From sequence record JN673056: a DNA stretch of 64,000 nt. One strand, 5' to 3'. The translations under genes were made by a program, and so were the position numbers. This document shows, piece by piece, positions 8,197 to 58,761 of this stretch (position 1 is its first letter; each line of letters opens with the position of its first letter). Source of the DNA: Escherichia phage PhaxI. The notes under the pieces are model-generated. The model saw only the letters and a list, made by a program, of their open reading frames with translations, was not told the origin of the DNA and searched no databases.

Positions 8197-8901
8197 CTAA
8201 CCATTTTTGTGTTTACGACGTGCGTCCTTCCAAACAGACATCTGACTCTGTTTCTGGAATCGAGCAGTACGCATAAACAAAACGACCTCCCAATATTGCG
8301 GTTCAATTTCATAAAGTTGTGAACGAAATTGATCTGCGCGGTATAATTTGACACAATGATTGTACAAAGGGTGATTCGCAAACCGCTTTAGCGCATCCCA
8401 GGTAAGTCTCAAACGTGTTTTAGAACGATACGCCCGTTCATTTCTCAATTTAATGAGATCTTCAAATACCAACAATCTGAGTTTAGGCGGTAAATAATGG
8501 AGGTTTAGGCCATAAAGATAGGTTACACCACGTTCACCGAATTTCACCCCATCCCCCTTCACAAAATTGAAGAAGAACACCAGAGGATACATATCCCAAT
8601 ACGGGAGTTCATCTTTAGTCAGCGCATCATATTTGAAATAATACATGCGACCAACAATATAACGCACACCCTGAACAGGACGTTTATTTTCAGCGAATGC
8701 TTTCATCATGTGATTCGGAGATAAGTTAGCATCTTTCGACACGCGCTCCATAAACCACACATGAGAACGACGGATATTACGCTTCGCTTCCGGCCCAAAA
8801 TGTTGACGATATTTGCGGATGTAACGCTTGACCAGTTCTGGGGCGTCCATCTCGGCGGGAAGCAACAACGGGTCTTCTTCACCCATAGCGTTCTTAGCCA
8901 T
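8197..8901 (-). CDS. Hypothetical basic protein (possibly a gp2/gp4-like head-completion or DNA-end protein; not verified)
   Basis: 234 aa, K/R/W-rich; transcribed divergently from a late structural gene as T4 genes 4/2 are from 53. Confidence 0.45.
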   Translation of the reverse strand: MAKNAMGEEDPLLLPAEMDAPELVKRYIRKYRQHFGPEAKRNIRRSHVWFMERVSKDANLSPNHMMKAFAENKRPVQGVRYIVGRMYYFKYDALTKDELPYWDMYPLVFFFNFVKGDGVKFGERGVTYLYGLNLHYLPPKLRLLVFEDLIKLRNERAYRSKTRLRLTWDALKRFANHPLYNHCVKLYRADQFRSQLYEIEPQYWEVVLFMRTARFQKQSQMSVWKDARRKHKNG

Positions 8902-13710: not shown

Positions 13711-13718
13711 TATAAATA
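13711..13718 (+). promoter_or_regulatory. T4-type late promoter motif TATAAATA
   Basis: Exact TATAAATA 29 nt upstream of ATG 13747; GGAGA RBS at 13736-13740. Confidence 0.5.
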
Positions 13719-13746: not shown

Positions 13747-14553
13747 ATGAATTTACCATCATTGCCCAAAACTGAGAGAACACATAAAAGTGATTTCTGG
13801 CCGACTGTGATCAAATACCGCGCCTTTACAGCAGGGCAACAGACCATGTTACTTCAGGTTGCTGATCCGAACACTCCTATGAGTGAGCGCGTGGCAACAT
13901 TGGAGCAACTATTTGACAGTTGTGTTGATGCTGGCGTTCCCTTTAGTAAACTGCCAATCGGTGTTACTGAAGAAGTATTTTTAAAGATGCGCTGTATATC
14001 TATCGGCGAGGTCATGAAGATACGTTACAAATGTAATAACAAAGTTCAAGCCGAAACCAATGAAGGTGGTGAAGAACCAGTTTCTGGCCTTAAAGATTGT
14101 GGTCAAGAGCTTGTGTTACCGATCCCGCTCAATCAAGTAAAATGCGTGTCCCCAGAAGGCTTCAGGGAGACGTTTGATCTACCAGGTGGTTATCATATAA
14201 AGATGCGCCAGCCGTCCTTCTCGGATGCCTCAGTGCTTAATGAAGCATCCTCTGTTGAACAAATGATTGCCACCTTTATCGATTGTCTGTATGACGACGA
14301 TGGTCAGGTTTGGAAGGTGGAAAATCCGGCTGAACCTGGTATCGATCCAGAAGTTGCTAAAGAACGCCAACGCATTAAGGATGAATTTGTCAAATGGGTC
14401 GGGGACAATATTGAATCTGAGATTGTTCAGGACATTTCGAATGATTTCTTTAAAAAGATTCCGCGTATTCGTTACGCGACAAAAATTAAATGCCCTTCGT
14501 GTGGGAAAGAACACGAAGTCAAATTTAACAGTGTCACCGAGATTTTCATTTAA
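13747..14553 (+). CDS. Putative baseplate/hub-associated structural protein (late gene)
   Basis: 268 aa behind a late promoter and upstream of the gp5/gp25 genes; C-terminal CPSCG motif; followed by a terminator. Confidence 0.45.
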   Translation: MNLPSLPKTERTHKSDFWPTVIKYRAFTAGQQTMLLQVADPNTPMSERVATLEQLFDSCVDAGVPFSKLPIGVTEEVFLKMRCISIGEVMKIRYKCNNKVQAETNEGGEEPVSGLKDCGQELVLPIPLNQVKCVSPEGFRETFDLPGGYHIKMRQPSFSDASVLNEASSVEQMIATFIDCLYDDDGQVWKVENPAEPGIDPEVAKERQRIKDEFVKWVGDNIESEIVQDISNDFFKKIPRIRYATKIKCPSCGKEHEVKFNSVTEIFI

Positions 14554-14702
14554 TTTTTGAAATTGATTTACTCTCCTATTTTGTGATGTGTGACGAATTA
14601 AAGGCACACGGCTATAGCATATTTGAAATCAGTGAATCGATGCCGTGGCATCTTGATTTGCTTACCGAGACACTGAAAATTAGATTGTCTAAGAAATCTT
14701 CC

Positions 14703-14730
14703 AACCCCACGTAATGTGGGGTTTTCTTTG
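14703..14730 (+). terminator. Rho-independent terminator
   Basis: AACCCCACgtaatGTGGGGTT followed by TTCTTT, downstream of the 13747..14553 gene. Confidence 0.6.
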
Positions 14731-15059
14731 CTTACATGTTTTATAGGTTAAGACAGGAACGTTTAACCTTAAATTGCTATAACACCGTTGTTGCTGAAGT
14801 AAGTGTTGTGTAATTGGGGTTTGAATTTGTTTTGAAGCAAAAATAATCCTTTTCTACGCATGTTCTGAGGTGTACAGTATTTTCCTCGCCTTTATGCCTC
14901 CATGGCATTGGAATGGGACTGCCTGTCAAGGCGGTGTTACGAGCTTCAGCGAGTAGGAACGAAAAGAATAAAGGTTGAACGGAAGCAGAGCTTCCTATAA
15001 TATATTATTCGACAGATTTCAAATCCCCGCCATAAATATCACATGATTCTAATTGACTA

Positions 15060-16685
15060 ATGGGTTTCAATATGTTAGACAACTTGCGTTGGTTTTACGG
15101 GCGCGTTGAAGACGTGAATGATCCCGATCAAAACGGGCGCGTCGCAGTACGCATCTATGGGGTACAACACGAGGATACCACTCTCCTGCCTACAGAATTA
15201 TTGCCTTGGGGTAAAATGCTTATGCCAGCATCTAACGCCTCCTCGGCAGGTTTAGGCTGGTCTCCGACGGGTATCACTGTCGGCTCTGACGTCATGGGGT
15301 TTGCTTTGGATGAAGCATATCAGAACATCCGTATTGCATGGGTATGGCCAGCAGCAACACCAACAGATGGGTCAGATACAAACCCATTGGCGCTGGGTCA
15401 GGTCGTTCAATCTATAGAAAGGCAGAAGTATAATGCCGTCGAGAATGTTCCTGTTAAGATTGAGGATGAACCGCAACCGGATCCACAACCACCAGTAGAC
15501 GGATATGATCCTGAGAAGTGGATGACCGTGGCTCGTGGGGAATTGGGTGTCAAAGAATATTCTGGTAAGTTCAATAACAACCCAAGGATATTGGAATATC
15601 ATAAGACAACTTCCCTGGGGGCTTCAGAAGATGAAGTTAGTTGGTGTGCGTCGTTTGTTGGATGGGTTCTGATACAGGCCGGATATACATCAACACGTTC
15701 TGCTTTGGCTCGTTCATATTTACAATGGGGGTCTCCTCTGTCAGAACCACGTTACGGCGCTGTTGTAGTGTTCCGGCGCGGGAACAACCCGACATTCGGT
15801 CACGTTGCATTCGTTCAGAAATTTGACGCCAACTACGTTTGGTGTATCGGGGGAAACCAATCCGATTCTGTGAAGGTGAGCCGTTTTAGCCGCTCATCCG
15901 TGTTGGGTTATCGTTGGCCAGGTCCAGCAACTACAGCTTCAGCAGCTCCGGCACAACAAAACGGTAAATGGTCTGAACCTATTCCAGATCGTACCCCGAA
16001 AGTCCAAGAAACACCGCCTCCTTCTGGTCGTGTTCAGGATATTGACAATACAGGAGAGGTATCGGTTCCTTCGGCTGGGGGGTCTCGTTATCCATACAAC
16101 AATGTTATGGCTTCTCGCGCTGGGCATATTATGGAGGTCGATGACACTCCAGGCGGGGAACGTTTGCATTGGATGCACTCTTCTGGGTCTTACAAGCAAA
16201 TGCTTCCTGACGGTGATGTTGTTAATAAATCAGTCAAAGATCATTATGACCTGACGATGTTCGACAAACGTTATTATGTGGGGGGTGATCATAACCTGAC
16301 AATTGGTGGGACTGAAGTACAGCGTAAGAAAGGAGAAGTTTACCACTTACACTCTTCTAACTATTCCAATGTGGTCGCTGGAACAGCGTTGATGAAATTT
16401 TCCCAATTGGCTGAGATACAGGCACAGAACGTGTTGCGTCTCATCTGTGAAATGTTTGAAGTGTCTAACACTTTGAAGGTTCCTAAGATACTGGCAACTG
16501 AAATAATTTGTGATAAATTATCGGTCGCACAGACTATTGAAGGCAACATCAAATATGCTGAAGGCGCTGGTCGCGCCGCCTCACGTGCGGGGGCAACTCC
16601 TGTAACAACTACAGGCCCAGGTCCAATTGATATAAAACCGGAGTTAGAGGATAACGGTGGCAATTTTGGTGGTAAAGGCGCATGA
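15060..16685 (+). CDS. 5: Baseplate central spike / tail-associated lysin (gp5-like) with NlpC/P60- or CHAP-like peptidase domain
   Basis: N-terminus LRWFYGRVEDVNDPDQNGRVAVRIYGV (gp5 OB-fold-like); middle domain with Cys...His pair (SWCASFVGWV...GHVAFV); C-terminal region that may correspond to the gp5 spike. Confidence 0.75.
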   Translation: MGFNMLDNLRWFYGRVEDVNDPDQNGRVAVRIYGVQHEDTTLLPTELLPWGKMLMPASNASSAGLGWSPTGITVGSDVMGFALDEAYQNIRIAWVWPAATPTDGSDTNPLALGQVVQSIERQKYNAVENVPVKIEDEPQPDPQPPVDGYDPEKWMTVARGELGVKEYSGKFNNNPRILEYHKTTSLGASEDEVSWCASFVGWVLIQAGYTSTRSALARSYLQWGSPLSEPRYGAVVVFRRGNNPTFGHVAFVQKFDANYVWCIGGNQSDSVKVSRFSRSSVLGYRWPGPATTASAAPAQQNGKWSEPIPDRTPKVQETPPPSGRVQDIDNTGEVSVPSAGGSRYPYNNVMASRAGHIMEVDDTPGGERLHWMHSSGSYKQMLPDGDVVNKSVKDHYDLTMFDKRYYVGGDHNLTIGGTEVQRKKGEVYHLHSSNYSNVVAGTALMKFSQLAEIQAQNVLRLICEMFEVSNTLKVPKILATEIICDKLSVAQTIEGNIKYAEGAGRAASRAGATPVTTTGPGPIDIKPELEDNGGNFGGKGA

Positions 16686-30578: not shown

Positions 30579-31217
30579 TTAAGGTGTTGGATTGACAACG
30601 GGAATATGGAACCTGATTCCAGAGACAATGTCCTTCAGCTGAGGCTTCCAGCCGTCCACCAGGCGGGACAACGCGTTAGAACCAGGATAGACAATAATGA
30701 TGTCGCTTCCGGTTACATTATGTTGAGGGAATTGTGACATGTATTGCTCCATCGTCACCCCTGGGTCTATCAACACAGGACCGACATCCGAAGATGCATA
30801 TGTTGCCCCCAAACCGTCGACGCCCCATGCTAGTATTCCATAATCAGGAATATTGGCTTCAGAAGTTATGGTGAATCCGAAGATACGATTCAGCGCAGAA
30901 AAATCATACACGCCGTGAGCACTGTCATATGTCAGATAACCCTTTGACAGCATATCAGCGAATATCGCGTCTGTGTCACCAGTTGCCGGAGTCGGTATGG
31001 TAAACAATAACTCACCAGCAGGAGGGGATGGATACGTGCCGAGCGCATAAAGGCACCAAGCGTCAATGCATTTCTTGATGAATGCTTCAGGCGCGACATA
31101 ATCCGCAAGGCGCATTGTACCGGAATATTCTGAAGTAATGATCCCTTCCTTCGCGCCCTGAATGGCCAGAAATACCATTATGTGTTCATATCCGGTCTGA
31201 GATGGAGTGATATTCAT
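30579..31217 (-). CDS. Hypothetical protein
   Basis: 212-aa ORF. Confidence 0.45.
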   Translation of the reverse strand: MNITPSQTGYEHIMVFLAIQGAKEGIITSEYSGTMRLADYVAPEAFIKKCIDAWCLYALGTYPSPPAGELLFTIPTPATGDTDAIFADMLSKGYLTYDSAHGVYDFSALNRIFGFTITSEANIPDYGILAWGVDGLGATYASSDVGPVLIDPGVTMEQYMSQFPQHNVTGSDIIIVYPGSNALSRLVDGWKPQLKDIVSGIRFHIPVVNPTP

Positions 31218-31834
31218 TATCTGGTCCTCTTGAGTTTCTCAATCGTGCGCTTATTCATGGCGATCACTCCTGGGTCGACCTTTGGGTTTATTGCCATGCC
31301 TTTGAAAGACACACATCGTTGAAGATATTTAGCCTTCTTCACGACGTCGGCTGCATAAGAATTGGATTTCTGGTTACGATTGAACCCAGCATTGTAAGAG
31401 GAAAGGGATTTGCGGATGTTTTGGTTGTGATATTCTAGCCAGAAATTCATTTCATCAAGGGCAGCATTGGCAGCATATTCTTGATTGACCAGTAATTTGA
31501 TCGCGACATTGGCGTAACACTTCTGTGTTTTGCATCCCTCCCGTTTCCCGACGGTTTGGACGCGATTTTGAAATGCCCCCATATTAGCCGATTTGAGGTT
31601 ATTCCGCATGGATACAACATCTTCTCCGGCGCGGCTTTCCCTCCATGATATTGCGGCGAGGGTGAAACCAAGGTCTTGTTGTTTTCCCACGTGATAGGCT
31701 GTGGCCATGGTTGAAAGTTGTTGATCAGAAAACCCATAATCACATTGGGTGGTACTTTGGGAAGCGTGCACACTCCCGCTGGCAATGGTAAAGGTCACGG
31801 ACAAGGCCATGGCCTTCAACGTTGTCATCGTCAT
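31217..31834 (-). CDS. Secreted lytic transglycosylase-like protein (SLT domain)
   Basis: N-terminal signal peptide MTMTTLKAMALSVTFTIASGSVHA; SWRESRAGED...NMGAFQ...SSYNAGFN fits the SLT ES...Q...AYNAG pattern. Confidence 0.55.
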   Translation of the reverse strand: MTMTTLKAMALSVTFTIASGSVHASQSTTQCDYGFSDQQLSTMATAYHVGKQQDLGFTLAAISWRESRAGEDVVSMRNNLKSANMGAFQNRVQTVGKREGCKTQKCYANVAIKLLVNQEYAANAALDEMNFWLEYHNQNIRKSLSSYNAGFNRNQKSNSYAADVVKKAKYLQRCVSFKGMAINPKVDPGVIAMNKRTIEKLKRTR

Positions 31835-57755: not shown

Positions 57756-58424
57756 TTAATCCAGCTGCATGCCGACGTAATAGTTGATGGTGCCGTCTGC
57801 GGATTGGAAGTTAACCAGTTGCATTTCGGCACAGGCGCGGATCACGTAGTTTCCTTCGATCATTTTCAGGTTGACCACATCAACAGGCATAGCAAAATCG
57901 CCCAGAGTTGTTTCGCCCAATTCAACAGTGTAATCGTTGGAATTATCGATAGTAGTGGTCGTGCCTACCAGACGAGTTTTACCGCCGCTGGCAACCAGAC
58001 GTACAGTTTTGTGGCCCAGAGTAGAACAGGCGCGGGTCAGCTCTTTCATTTTTTCAGGAGTGACCGTTGCTTCGAATTCTACAGACGGGAGATCGATGCT
58101 GTCTGCTGGAACGACCGTCAATTCTTTAGCGGAACGCCAGAATTGCAGTTGGGAGTTTTCACCTTTCAGCAAAATGTGGTCTTCTGACATTTCAATTTTA
58201 CCGCCTTTGAAACTCGGAAGACGCTGGATTGCCAGCAGTTTGGTGAGATCTAGAATCGGGAATTCGAACGGGAAGTCTTCGTCGATATCAGCGATAGCGA
58301 TAACTGTACTGGAATCGTTAACGGTGCGCAGCTTTTTACCAGGTGCCAGAACGATAGAGGGGCAGATGGTTTCAAAGTTAGCCAGCAGTTGTAAAGTGCG
58401 TTCGGAGAGAGTGATCTCTTGCAT
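57756..58424 (-). CDS. 45: Sliding clamp gp45
   Basis: 222 aa directly upstream of 44/62/regA (T4 synteny); size and composition fit gp45. Confidence 0.75.
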   Translation of the reverse strand: MQEITLSERTLQLLANFETICPSIVLAPGKKLRTVNDSSTVIAIADIDEDFPFEFPILDLTKLLAIQRLPSFKGGKIEMSEDHILLKGENSQLQFWRSAKELTVVPADSIDLPSVEFEATVTPEKMKELTRACSTLGHKTVRLVASGGKTRLVGTTTTIDNSNDYTVELGETTLGDFAMPVDVVNLKMIEGNYVIRACAEMQLVNFQSADGTINYYVGMQLD

Positions 58425-58761
58425 TGTTTATATCCTCAAAATATAGTGGGGTTCAAGTCATGTTTGACGCAAATTAGTATCGCGTGTTTGCAGTTATAGA
58501 ACAAGTGTTAAAATGCCCTACGCGCGATAAATAAATGCCTGACGGCATTTATAGTATTCTGTTTTAATAAAAACCTTTCTTTATCAGTCTACTCGCTTCG
58601 CTCGTGATAATACTCGTTGCTCGCAAAGCTCACAACTCGTATATTACGCACGGATTGTTCAACAAGAAAGCGATTTTTATTCAACTAGCAAAATAATTTA
58701 TTTGGTCTAAACACAGCATGAGATTATTATGTAGTTATGTTTACTAACAAGAGAGTGATAT

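Follow-up and report, generated by a model that had tools for sequence, protein, structure and literature searches.

What occupies the 506 nt that separate the genes for the baseplate proteins gp26 and gp5 in Escherichia phage PhaxI (record JN673056)? The spacer lies at positions 14554–15059 of the 64,000-nt stretch of DNA analysed here, which we call the window and to which coordinates refer unless another record is named. An earlier note, made from the letters alone, had offered three possibilities for the gap: a small RNA (sRNA), a regulatory leader with a degenerate late promoter, or a gene for a very small protein. We found that the gap is a packed regulatory junction and not an empty spacer: it contains a mini-gene, a terminator, a cassette whose core carries a conserved, covarying fold, and a late promoter for gp5. 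The cassette, with sister copies before gp6 and gp45, is our main subject, and we tentatively favour its action as a cis-acting leader on transcripts made before the late phase.

Biocontrol and therapy make wide use of Kuttervirus phages and their relatives (CBA120, Det7, SFP10, Vi01, LIMEstone and the Klebsiella Taipeiviruses), and of the several hundred deposited records in which the spacer occurs, most leave it blank. A covarying fold placed before gp5, before a late structural operon of ~38 kb and before the clamp gene offers a concrete entry to the timing of structural-gene expression.

Conservation of the spacer

The phage is a Vi1-like member of the genus Kuttervirus (Ackermannviridae). 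Its spacer is 99.8% identical to that of many Kuttervirus phages of Salmonella and E. coli, CBA120 and SFP10 among them, and the comparison with related phages that the earlier note had proposed as a check revealed conservation well beyond chance, of about 73% in four or five genera. It could be aligned over at least 80% of its length in 265 phage records; about 100 of these come from other genera, namely Taipeivirus (Klebsiella and Serratia), Limestonevirus (Dickeya), Agtrevirus and unclassified Aglimvirinae, with 70–74% identity across ~90% of the spacer. Miltonvirus (phiMAM1) retains only the first 125 nt at the level of BLAST. Strongly and weakly conserved blocks alternate in a six-genus alignment.

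A predicted fold in the cassette core

The core of the gp5 copy (14894–14954, + strand) is predicted from covariation to fold into an H-type pseudoknot followed by two hairpins. The pseudoknot (14894–14916) combines helix S1 (AUGCC at 14894–14898 with GGCAU at 14904–14908) and helix S2 (CCAU at 14900–14903 with AUGG at 14913–14916). Hairpin H2 (14918–14935) reads ACUGCCU-GUCA-AGGCGGU, and hairpin H3 (14939–14954) reads ACGAGC-UUCA-GCGAGU, with a tandem G·A/A·G motif in its stem (C-GA-G over C-GA-G).

Pairing was tested in 21 distinct sequences representing both full paralogues (described below) and all genera, with pairing partners slid by 1–3 columns and 500 shuffles as controls. Standard pairs occupied 94.1% of the core cells of the alignment, compared with 32–48% in the slid controls, and 7 of the 21 core pairs had changed on both sides. 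The covariation score was 0.277 for the core and 0.126 in shuffles, none of which (0/500) reached the value of the core.

Each helix contributed to this result. S1, of 5–6 bp, was paired in 21 of 21 sequences with double changes at 2–3 positions, such as A-U/U-A in the gp5 copy for C-G/A-U in the gp6 copy. The 4-bp S2 was never broken, being A-U in 13 sequences and C-G in 8 (Taipeivirus and CRW-SP2, both copies); with two covarying helices and feasible predicted loops of 1, 0 and 4 nt, S1 and S2 have the make-up of an H-type RNA pseudoknot. H2 was paired in 100% of cells, with double changes at two positions (C-G to U-A and U-A to C-G) and a conserved U·G pair. In H3, a C-G to U-A double change stands beside the G·A/A·G pairs, which were retained in 41 of 42 cells, while the apical loop is variable (GAA in most copies, otherwise UUCA, AAC, GUA or, in the Kuttervirus gp6 copy, an 18-nt G+C hairpin). 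S1, H2, H3 and the flanking hairpins were recovered independently by RNAalifold, applied to eight gp5-copy sequences, and by minimum free energy (MFE) folding. In favour of the suggested small RNA, a conserved covarying fold lies between mini-gene and late promoter; if transcribed, it may be an sRNA or a leader.

Several further pairings were considered. A closing helix (CCUUUUC-UAC with GUA...GAAAAG) was rejected as a feature of Kuttervirus only, not conserved elsewhere. The S1 loop bears an anti-Shine–Dalgarno-like CCUCC, and its pairing with the gp6 Shine–Dalgarno sequence was rejected, the Taipeivirus changes not being compensatory. RNAalifold also proposed a 5-bp long-range helix (14832–14836 with 15008–15012) with two covarying positions; short and absent from several gp6 copies, it is a weak lead. 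The 5′ strand CUGCC and the shape of H2 recall the type I-F CRISPR repeat hairpin (CUGCC...GGCAG), the flanks of which do not match.

Sister copies before gp6 and gp45

BLAST of the gap against the 64-kb window detected no second copy there, and the gp6 paralogue came to notice through BLAST counts of two places per genome. This full paralogue lies upstream of gp6, outside the window (CBA120, JN593240, 133100–133455, − strand; 1417–1768 in sequence L008), in a divergent spacer; gp6 is the first gene of the ~38-kb late structural operon, which continues through tailspikes, neck, terminase, sheath, tube and portal to gp23. The paralogue comprises a further, long hairpin, H0, the pseudoknot, H2 and H3 with the extra G+C hairpin, and is conserved across genera at 72–83% identity. 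Common to the gp5 and gp6 copies are a 5′ motif (A5-6...CTTTTCTAC), the ~65-nt core, 94% identical within one genome, an A+T-rich TATA(A/T)T...TTCGA block, and a stretch that takes in the late promoter and the beginning of its leader (TAAATATCTTCAAC).

A covariance model of the core, built without the pseudoknot, was searched in a complete CBA120-type genome and found exactly two full copies, at gp5 (78.9 bits) and gp6 (76.8 bits), and an isolated H3 module at 58587–58619 (− strand). The latter belongs to a third, partial cassette in the 337-nt spacer (58425–58761, − strand) upstream of the sliding-clamp gene gp45 (57756–58424, − strand; PHROG 223, E = 1.5e-65), which was further delineated by six-genus alignment and by promoter and terminator scans. 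The gp45 copy, conserved across genera at 74–81% identity, has the 5′ motif, H0 (58642–58610, with two tandem G·A motifs) and H3 (ACGAGCGAAGCGAGU, 58605–58591), and lacks the pseudoknot and H2. H0, present in the gp6 and gp45 copies, was 100% paired in nine sequences with 5 of its 11 pairs double-changed, compared with 23–61% pairing in slid controls, and was again recovered by RNAalifold and MFE folding.

All three cassettes are co-oriented with the gene downstream and follow a common layout of promoter-like box, 5′ motif, structured core, hairpin, A+T-rich −10-like box, and late promoter or gene. The genes neighbouring the gp6 and gp45 copies belong to PHROGs of unknown function and are not paralogous to each other.

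A putative sigma-70-like element stands 60–110 nt ahead of each cassette and points towards it. For the gp5 copy this is an extended −10-like box, TGcTATAAC (14775–14783), which follows a hairpin, AGGTTAA...TTAACCT (14745–14751/14763–14769); across six genera the flanks diverge, but the TATA of the box and the AGGT of the hairpin do not vary. We infer a putative sigma-70-type pre-late promoter here, with a start near 14790. The corresponding elements are TTGATA-18-TATTAT (10/12 matches) in the gp6 copy and, from the scan, TTGTTA-16-AATAAT (58750–58723) in the gp45 copy. The 5′ motif of the gp5 copy, AAAAATAATCCTTTTCTAC (14839–14857, + strand), aligns with AAAAACTACTTTTCTAC in the gp6 copy and AAAAATCGCTTTCTTG in the gp45 copy. 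Between motif and core, RNAalifold draws a small hairpin at 14865–14877 (CUG-AGGUGUA-CAG; CUGU-GCUGU-AUGG in Taipeivirus), a weak candidate with one-sided changes only.

Beyond the core, the gp5 copy has a hairpin GGAAGC-AGA-GCUUCC (14981–14995) followed directly by TATAAT (14996–15001) and an A+T-rich stretch. The hairpin is compensated in Taipeivirus (GGAAGC/GCUUCC to GGAUGC/GCAUCC) and has a folding energy of −8.1 kcal/mol (z = −2.4); the terminator scan did not call it, its U-tract being interrupted. The unit at 14981–15001 may be either a weak terminator or attenuator, or a stem-loop-plus-promoter unit. Post-core hairpins also occur in the gp6 copy (AAACGC...GCGUUU, with a U/A-rich tail) and the gp45 copy (AUAAAUGCC-GUCA-GGCAUUUAU, 58552–58531).

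The sense strand and the tandem G·A pairs

Across all helices, G·U(T) occurred in 40 cells and A·C in 2, both of the latter from two misaligned rows. An excess of this kind places the fold on the sense strand and excludes a double-stranded palindrome or protein site. The tandem G·A was retained in 77 of 78 cells and its replacement by a Watson–Crick pair was never seen, which points to a specific structural or recognition role. The conserved wobble pairs and the compact pseudoknot favour RNA as the form in which the fold acts; if so, the cassettes would form a new family of structured RNAs that depends to an unusual degree on invariant tandem G·A pairs.

The late promoter of gp5

Downstream of the cassette lies a predicted late promoter for gp5, CATAAATA (15031–15038, + strand). 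The sequence CATAAATA(T/C)C is invariant in six genera with divergent flanks. A census of the window found nnTAAATA 21–31 nt before the ATG of at least 8 genes, including gp5 (CATAAATA) and gp26 (TATAAATA, 13711–13718, + strand), with the first two bases varying among genes (TA, CA, AT, GC, CC, TT and TC). As in T4-type (gp55-dependent) late promoters, CATAAATA offers a −10-like element near a late gene and no −35, and the late-transcription accessory protein gp33 is encoded nearby. In alignment, the gp5 late promoter with its ATCTTCAAC-like leader is homologous to the gp6 late promoter, GCTAAATATCTTCAAC.

By this census, CATAAATA is the normal late-promoter form of the family and is not degenerate. 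The earlier note had reported no exact late promoter in the gap; the two boxes it did report are present as it saw them (CATAAATA at 15031–15038 and TATAAT(ATA) at 14996–15004), and its verdict reflected an expectation centred on T4. Its further idea of a degenerate late promoter with a regulatory leader stands as to a conserved promoter for gp5 and fails as to ‘degenerate’, the family form being nnTAAATA. Late promoters of this family are accordingly better searched as nnTAAATA than as TATAAATA.

The 16-mer GCTAAATATCTTCAAC, which spans the gp6 late promoter and the start of its leader, also occurs at 31318–31333 (− strand), inside a 205-aa frame (open reading frame (ORF) 31217–31834). This copy could be an internal late promoter for a downstream 212-aa gene, or chance.

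Distribution of the core and of the H3 hairpin

No homologue of the element was found in 5,426 E. coli genomes. A pattern scan of viral contigs returned the core only from Ackermannviridae-type contigs, with G+C-rich matches attributable to chance, and none of the at least 120 loci listed in a metagenome scan was genuine.

H3 by itself is more widespread. The form ACGAGC-GAA-GCGAGU recurs in unrelated phage contigs, hinting at a more general module, and the exact 15-mer ACGAGCGAAGCGAGT is present in >120 viral contigs of many kinds, a raw count that is near chance by rough estimate. Of 110 distinct occurrences, 57% fall outside any open frame of 100 codons or more, compared with 18% of background bases; 15 have at least 3 extra Watson–Crick pairs extending the stem (~2 expected), and 7 of the 110 follow immediately after a TATAAT-like box (~0.1 expected). 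Among contigs L075–L190, one (L130) holds three copies of ACGAGCGAAGCGAGT in 3.5 kb, each after an A+T-rich promoter-like repeat.

Comparison with catalogued RNAs

The covariance-model scan that the earlier note had suggested (Infernal with Rfam) matched no catalogued family. Rfam 15 gave no match at gathering thresholds over the whole window, and relaxing the limit to E values of up to 10 for 14400–15200 brought only six sub-threshold chance matches to snoRNA and sRNA models, the best of which scored 22 bits (threshold, 34). ARAGORN found no tRNA or tmRNA gene in 14400–15200.

Two known motifs were considered and rejected. For a hammerhead, the Aglimvirinae gp5 copies read CUGAUGAGCGAAGCGAAU and those of Kuttervirus and Taipeivirus UUACGAGC...GCGAGU, so that G5 and A14 are not conserved; the covarying pair would join N7 with position 14, a stem III partner is absent, the Rfam hammerhead models gave no match, and the hammerhead-like CUGAUGAG...CGAA of Aglimvirinae is not conserved in other genera. 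For a kink-turn, the tandem G·A is flanked by Watson–Crick pairs on both sides and there is no 3-nt bulge.

T4 provides a structural parallel. The 5′ translational operator of T4 gene 32 mRNA is a compact H-type pseudoknot with a one-nt first loop, upstream of an A/U-rich unstructured stretch on the way to a gene start. The cassette shares the compact pseudoknot, the one-nt first loop and the A/U-rich stretch that follows; it differs in having no sequence similarity, in not lying beside gene 32, and in having a late promoter between pseudoknot and gene (gp5 and gp6 copies).

What the cassette may do

We hypothesized that the cassette is a cis-acting leader or attenuator on pre-late transcripts that is bypassed by the late promoter, and this is the explanation we tentatively prefer, while granting it well under an even chance of being right. 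The anatomy on which this mechanism would build is well supported: the late transcript of gp26 also carries the 53-codon mini-gene and ends at the terminator at 14703–14733, and gp5 has a conserved late promoter of its own, CATAAATA (15031–15038), with the ~250-nt cassette in between. The cassette would be transcribed before the late phase, from a host-type promoter ~60–110 nt upstream of the core (here 14775–14783). The folded RNA and the hairpin that follows it would then act in cis to stop, stabilise or silence pre-late transcripts entering the downstream gene, and late transcripts, begun downstream of the structure, would bypass it. We favour a leader in cis because the cassettes are co-oriented with their genes, because the gp5 and gp6 copies were duplicated jointly with late promoter and leader, and because of the layout of promoter, fold, hairpin and gene.

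T4 uses the same bypass logic for late genes crossed by early transcripts. In T4 genes e, soc and 49, early read-through transcripts are silenced by a hairpin, and late promoters start inside or after that hairpin. The order of pre-late promoter, RNA structure, late promoter and gene is common to both systems, as is a late transcript without the structure. The T4 hairpin sequesters the ribosome-binding site, however, and no such conserved pairing was found in the cassette.

A number of observations weigh against a cis-acting RNA leader. In single-sequence folding, the gp5 core did no better than shuffles (z = −0.87), and the gp6 copy alone stood out (z = −3.2). Independent covariation events are few, and variants are sometimes common to the paralogues within a genome, so that gene conversion may inflate the covariation counts; in one genome (IMGVR_UViG_3300045988_107072; L034/L044), the gp5 and gp6 copies carry the same H2 variant, GGTGCTGCCCGCATAGGGCGG, within flanks resembling different genera, which suggests gene conversion between paralogues. 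The search for a conserved covarying pairing of the cassette with the gp5 or gp6 ribosome-binding sites gave none. The putative promoter at 14775–14783 has no recognisable −35 and received no call in the promoter scan, and the hairpins after the cores of all three copies lack a clean U-tract. H3 may be a generic phage hairpin module recruited by the cassette, and its preferred cap, GCGAAGC, is the classic extra-stable DNA mini-hairpin, fitting a role in single-stranded DNA (ssDNA) at least equally well. Our literature search found no transcriptome, transcription or non-coding RNA study of Ackermannviridae.

The same structural and covariation evidence would serve stand-alone, trans-acting sRNAs of ~150–220 nt, running from the sigma-70-type promoter to the post-core hairpin and acting on phage or host targets by base pairing or as a protein sponge or decoy, and we regard this as possible though on the unlikely side. 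Every cassette would then be a gene in its own right that simply happens to lie between transcription units. A hairpin with a U/A-rich tail comes after each core (14981–14995; 58552–58531; AAACGC...GCGUUU), the downstream genes have promoters of their own, and CCUCC in the S1 loop resembles an anti-Shine–Dalgarno sequence. These terminators are weak, however, and scans of the gp6 and gp45 copies called them in the antisense direction only; complementarity to a target was not identified, and the co-orientation of all three cassettes with their genes, and the joint duplication of the gp5 and gp6 copies with late promoter and leader, suggest a link in cis.

A bolder form of the cis-acting reading is that the three cassettes are an undescribed class of phage regulatory RNA, a switch read by a phage or host factor or a small ligand that times the early-to-late transition in Ackermannviridae, working as an RNA-based antiterminator or attenuator that gates pre-late entry into the gp5, gp6–gp23 and gp45 operons. 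This we think unlikely, if worth bearing in mind. The put RNAs of HK022 and riboswitch-type attenuators are multi-copy RNAs of two or three hairpins placed ahead of operons, and the cassettes resemble them in having several copies per genome, located between a promoter and a terminator-like hairpin. They differ in showing no Rfam similarity and no conserved, mutually exclusive terminator/antiterminator pairing: the conserved fold is followed by a hairpin, and candidate alternative pairings (through the H3 loop GCUUC or GAAGC) are inconsistent across genera. Bolder still would be to take the same hairpins, formed in DNA, as sequence-specific clamp-loading enhancers for the adjacent late promoters.

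Could the cassettes instead be plain composite terminator–promoter modules without further RNA function, their hairpins serving as terminators or to stabilise transcripts and their A+T boxes as promoters, and alike through duplication and gene conversion? T4-type phages hold repeated cassettes of a stem-loop and an early promoter, the PeSL/PmSL elements (Arbiol et al. 2010, PMC2839356; Comeau et al. 2014, PMC4122927); a PeSL consists of a simple stem-loop, a −35/−10 promoter, a Shine–Dalgarno sequence and an ATG, in many copies that lie mostly in hyperplastic regions and are linked to gene shuffling (PMC2839356, PMC4122927). Like these, our cassettes are repeated, homologous and intergenic in T4-related myoviruses, with hairpins directly upstream of −10-like boxes (14745–14783; 14981–15001; and, in the gp6 copy, H3 followed by TATATT/TATAAT), the 15-mer of H3 turns up often between genes in unrelated phages, and variants are shared between copies in some genomes. 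Yet PeSLs number dozens in hyperplastic regions, whereas in all genera examined a genome has only two full copies and a partial one, and these keep their places before the core genes gp5, gp6 and gp45. The boxes after the hairpins (14745–14783; 14981–15001) leave no room for a −35; the gene start is at least 70 nt off, behind a late promoter, and the cassettes end 30–110 nt before the gene. A multi-helix fold with a covarying pseudoknot and never-replaced G·A pairs would, moreover, be unnecessary for termination. We consider this explanation rather improbable.

Of lower standing again, and doubtful to us, is an ssDNA structure, with hairpins and pseudoknot formed on the unwound or displaced sense strand for replication or recombination, as an origin or priming signal, or for loading of gp45 to activate the adjacent late promoter. 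A GCGAAGC cap and 5′-YGAR-3′ tandem G·A pairs are typical of DNA hairpins of high stability. A+T-rich stretches resembling unwinding elements follow the cores, and the copies adjoin late promoters and the clamp gene. T4 oriF adjoins genes 25 and 26 in the RefSeq annotation, a positional analogy only. The forty conserved G·U(T) wobbles and the compact pseudoknot are, however, more RNA-like, and the late enhancer of T4 is not known to need a specific sequence.

That the core encodes a micro-peptide (21 aa, 14913–14978, + strand; 32 aa, 14902–15000, + strand; or 50 aa, 14777–14929, − strand) is very improbable: the gp6 copy does share the stretches MGLPVKAVLRA and TGSPIP.PWR, but AGG replaces the AUG in Taipeivirus and CRW-SP2, the linkers and the H2 loop contain 1- and 2-nt indels that put every frame out of register, and substitutions track pairing and not codon positions.

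A mini-gene directly after gp26

The very small protein gene suggested by the earlier note is present at the start of the gap, as codon-position bias and a match to PHROG 9633 attest. It comprises 53 codons at 14553–14714 (+ strand), encoding (I/M)FEIDLLSYFVMCDELKAHGYSIFEISESMPWHLDLLTETLKIRLSKKSSNPT, in the −1 frame immediately after the gp26 stop; its ATT (14553–14555) overlaps the gp26 TAA (14551–14553) by one base, and its own TAA (14712–14714) sits in the loop of the terminator. A 43-aa version matched the 49-aa phage family PHROG 9633 with E = 4e-29 (profile positions 11–49), and the 49-aa orthologue of JA15 did so with E = 3e-39 (positions 1–49). In nine genomes, the variable sites at codon positions 1, 2 and 3 numbered 15, 10 and 32, and differing codons were synonymous in 441 cases versus non-synonymous in 240, strong evidence in the codon pattern for purifying selection.

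The position of the start is conserved: Aglimvirinae have ATG there (as TAATG over the gp26 stop), Miltonvirus has ATC, and Kuttervirus and Taipeivirus share ATT. Possible internal starts exist at GTG 14583 and ATG 14586 (Val-Met), and the amino acids of the ten codons ahead of this Val-Met are kept through synonymous changes. Because these ten codons before the first AUG stay under purifying selection, we infer initiation at AUU 14553, and thus translation from AUU or AUC coupled to gp26 termination. Initiation at the internal AUG 14586 is a possible alternative, in line with SJ3-type records, which annotate a 42-aa protein from that AUG. A −1 frameshift from gp26 into the mini-gene is unlikely, there being no canonical slippery heptamer and the Aglimvirinae carrying ATG.

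The protein is annotated as a 49-aa hypothetical coding sequence in JA15, SKML-39, CRW-SP2, PC3 and CAU_YEP3. Most records do not annotate the gap as coding because the mini-gene has no ATG at the conserved start in Kuttervirus; a conserved mini-protein of the baseplate cluster has thus been overlooked in most Kuttervirus records owing to its ATT start. For an ATT start close to gene 26 in a T4-like phage there is a precedent, since RefSeq T4 annotates gene 26′ with one in the same gene neighbourhood. T4 26′ is, however, the in-frame C-terminal part of gp26, whereas the mini-gene here is a separate −1-frame gene past the gp26 stop.

Homologues of the mini-protein were confined to Ackermannviridae in the homologue search. 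There are weak profile matches to the family of gp51 (PHROG 634; E = 4.4e-4 for the JA15 version and 0.033 for the window version), and hhalign against T4 gp51 gave E = 0.02 over residues 211–237 with a probability of 2%. T4 gp51 is the baseplate hub assembly catalyst, and its gene adjoins gene 26 in T4, a parallel to the position seen here; T4 gp51 has 249 aa versus 53 here, and the similarity is marginal. We suggest kinship to this hub-assembly family only tentatively.

The terminator

The strong terminator that had been placed at 14703–14730 was confirmed as a stem-loop at 14703–14723, in which a 9-bp stem (5 of its pairs G-C) closes a loop of 3 nt; the T-rich tail behind it, TTCTTTGCTT, reaches 14733. 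A stem-loop with a T-rich tract at the end of a transcription unit is the form of an intrinsic (rho-independent) terminator, here for the gp26/mini-gene late transcript (14703–14733, + strand). The stem is compensated among six genera (CCCCAC/GTGGGG, CCCCGC/GCGGGG, TCCCGC/GCGGGA and GGTCGC/GCGGCC), and ‘terminator’ is annotated at this site in Menlow, Maynard and Matapan.

Boundaries of the gap and neighbouring sequence

The gap of about 500 bp upstream of a gp5-like gene is real. According to the ORF listing, gp26 ends at 14553 and the next long ORF runs from 15060, which gives 506 nt; the gp5 start common to six genera, and annotated in CBA120, is ATG 15072 (MLDNLRWFYG...) and not the listed ATG 15060, so the gap is ~12 nt longer. 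The baseplate hub gene gp26 occupies 13747–14553 (+ strand; PHROG 150 ‘baseplate hub’, E = 1e-63; orf090 of CBA120), and the baseplate hub/tail lysozyme gene gp5 occupies 15072–16685 (+ strand), its start, by alignment, equivalent to that of orf092 of CBA120. Between these two genes CBA120 has an unannotated spacer, and the number orf091 was skipped. The earlier claim that the gap holds no ORF of at least 60 aa was upheld by the ORF listing: the sole longer frame that touches it, of 125 aa at 14230–14607 on the − strand, lies nearly all inside gp26 and is spurious.

On a rough ORF map the spacer ranks by length within the top four ORF-free stretches in the window, two others being 175–821 (647 nt) and 8355–8760 (406 nt). 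The phage of the window looks mosaic: its gp26–gp5 spacer is 99.8% identical to CBA120 and SFP10 and 95.7% to ECML-4, and its gp45 spacer (58425–58761) is ~94% identical to SFP10, 100% to BRM 13313 and 99.4% to ECML-4. Near-identical Kuttervirus sequence also occurs in records OR844942 and OR844944 (‘Enterococcus phage Efm 3-10’, UNVERIFIED_ORG) and MN871475 (‘Pseudomonas phage Pa-sanjiao’), which are probably mislabelled or contaminated assemblies.

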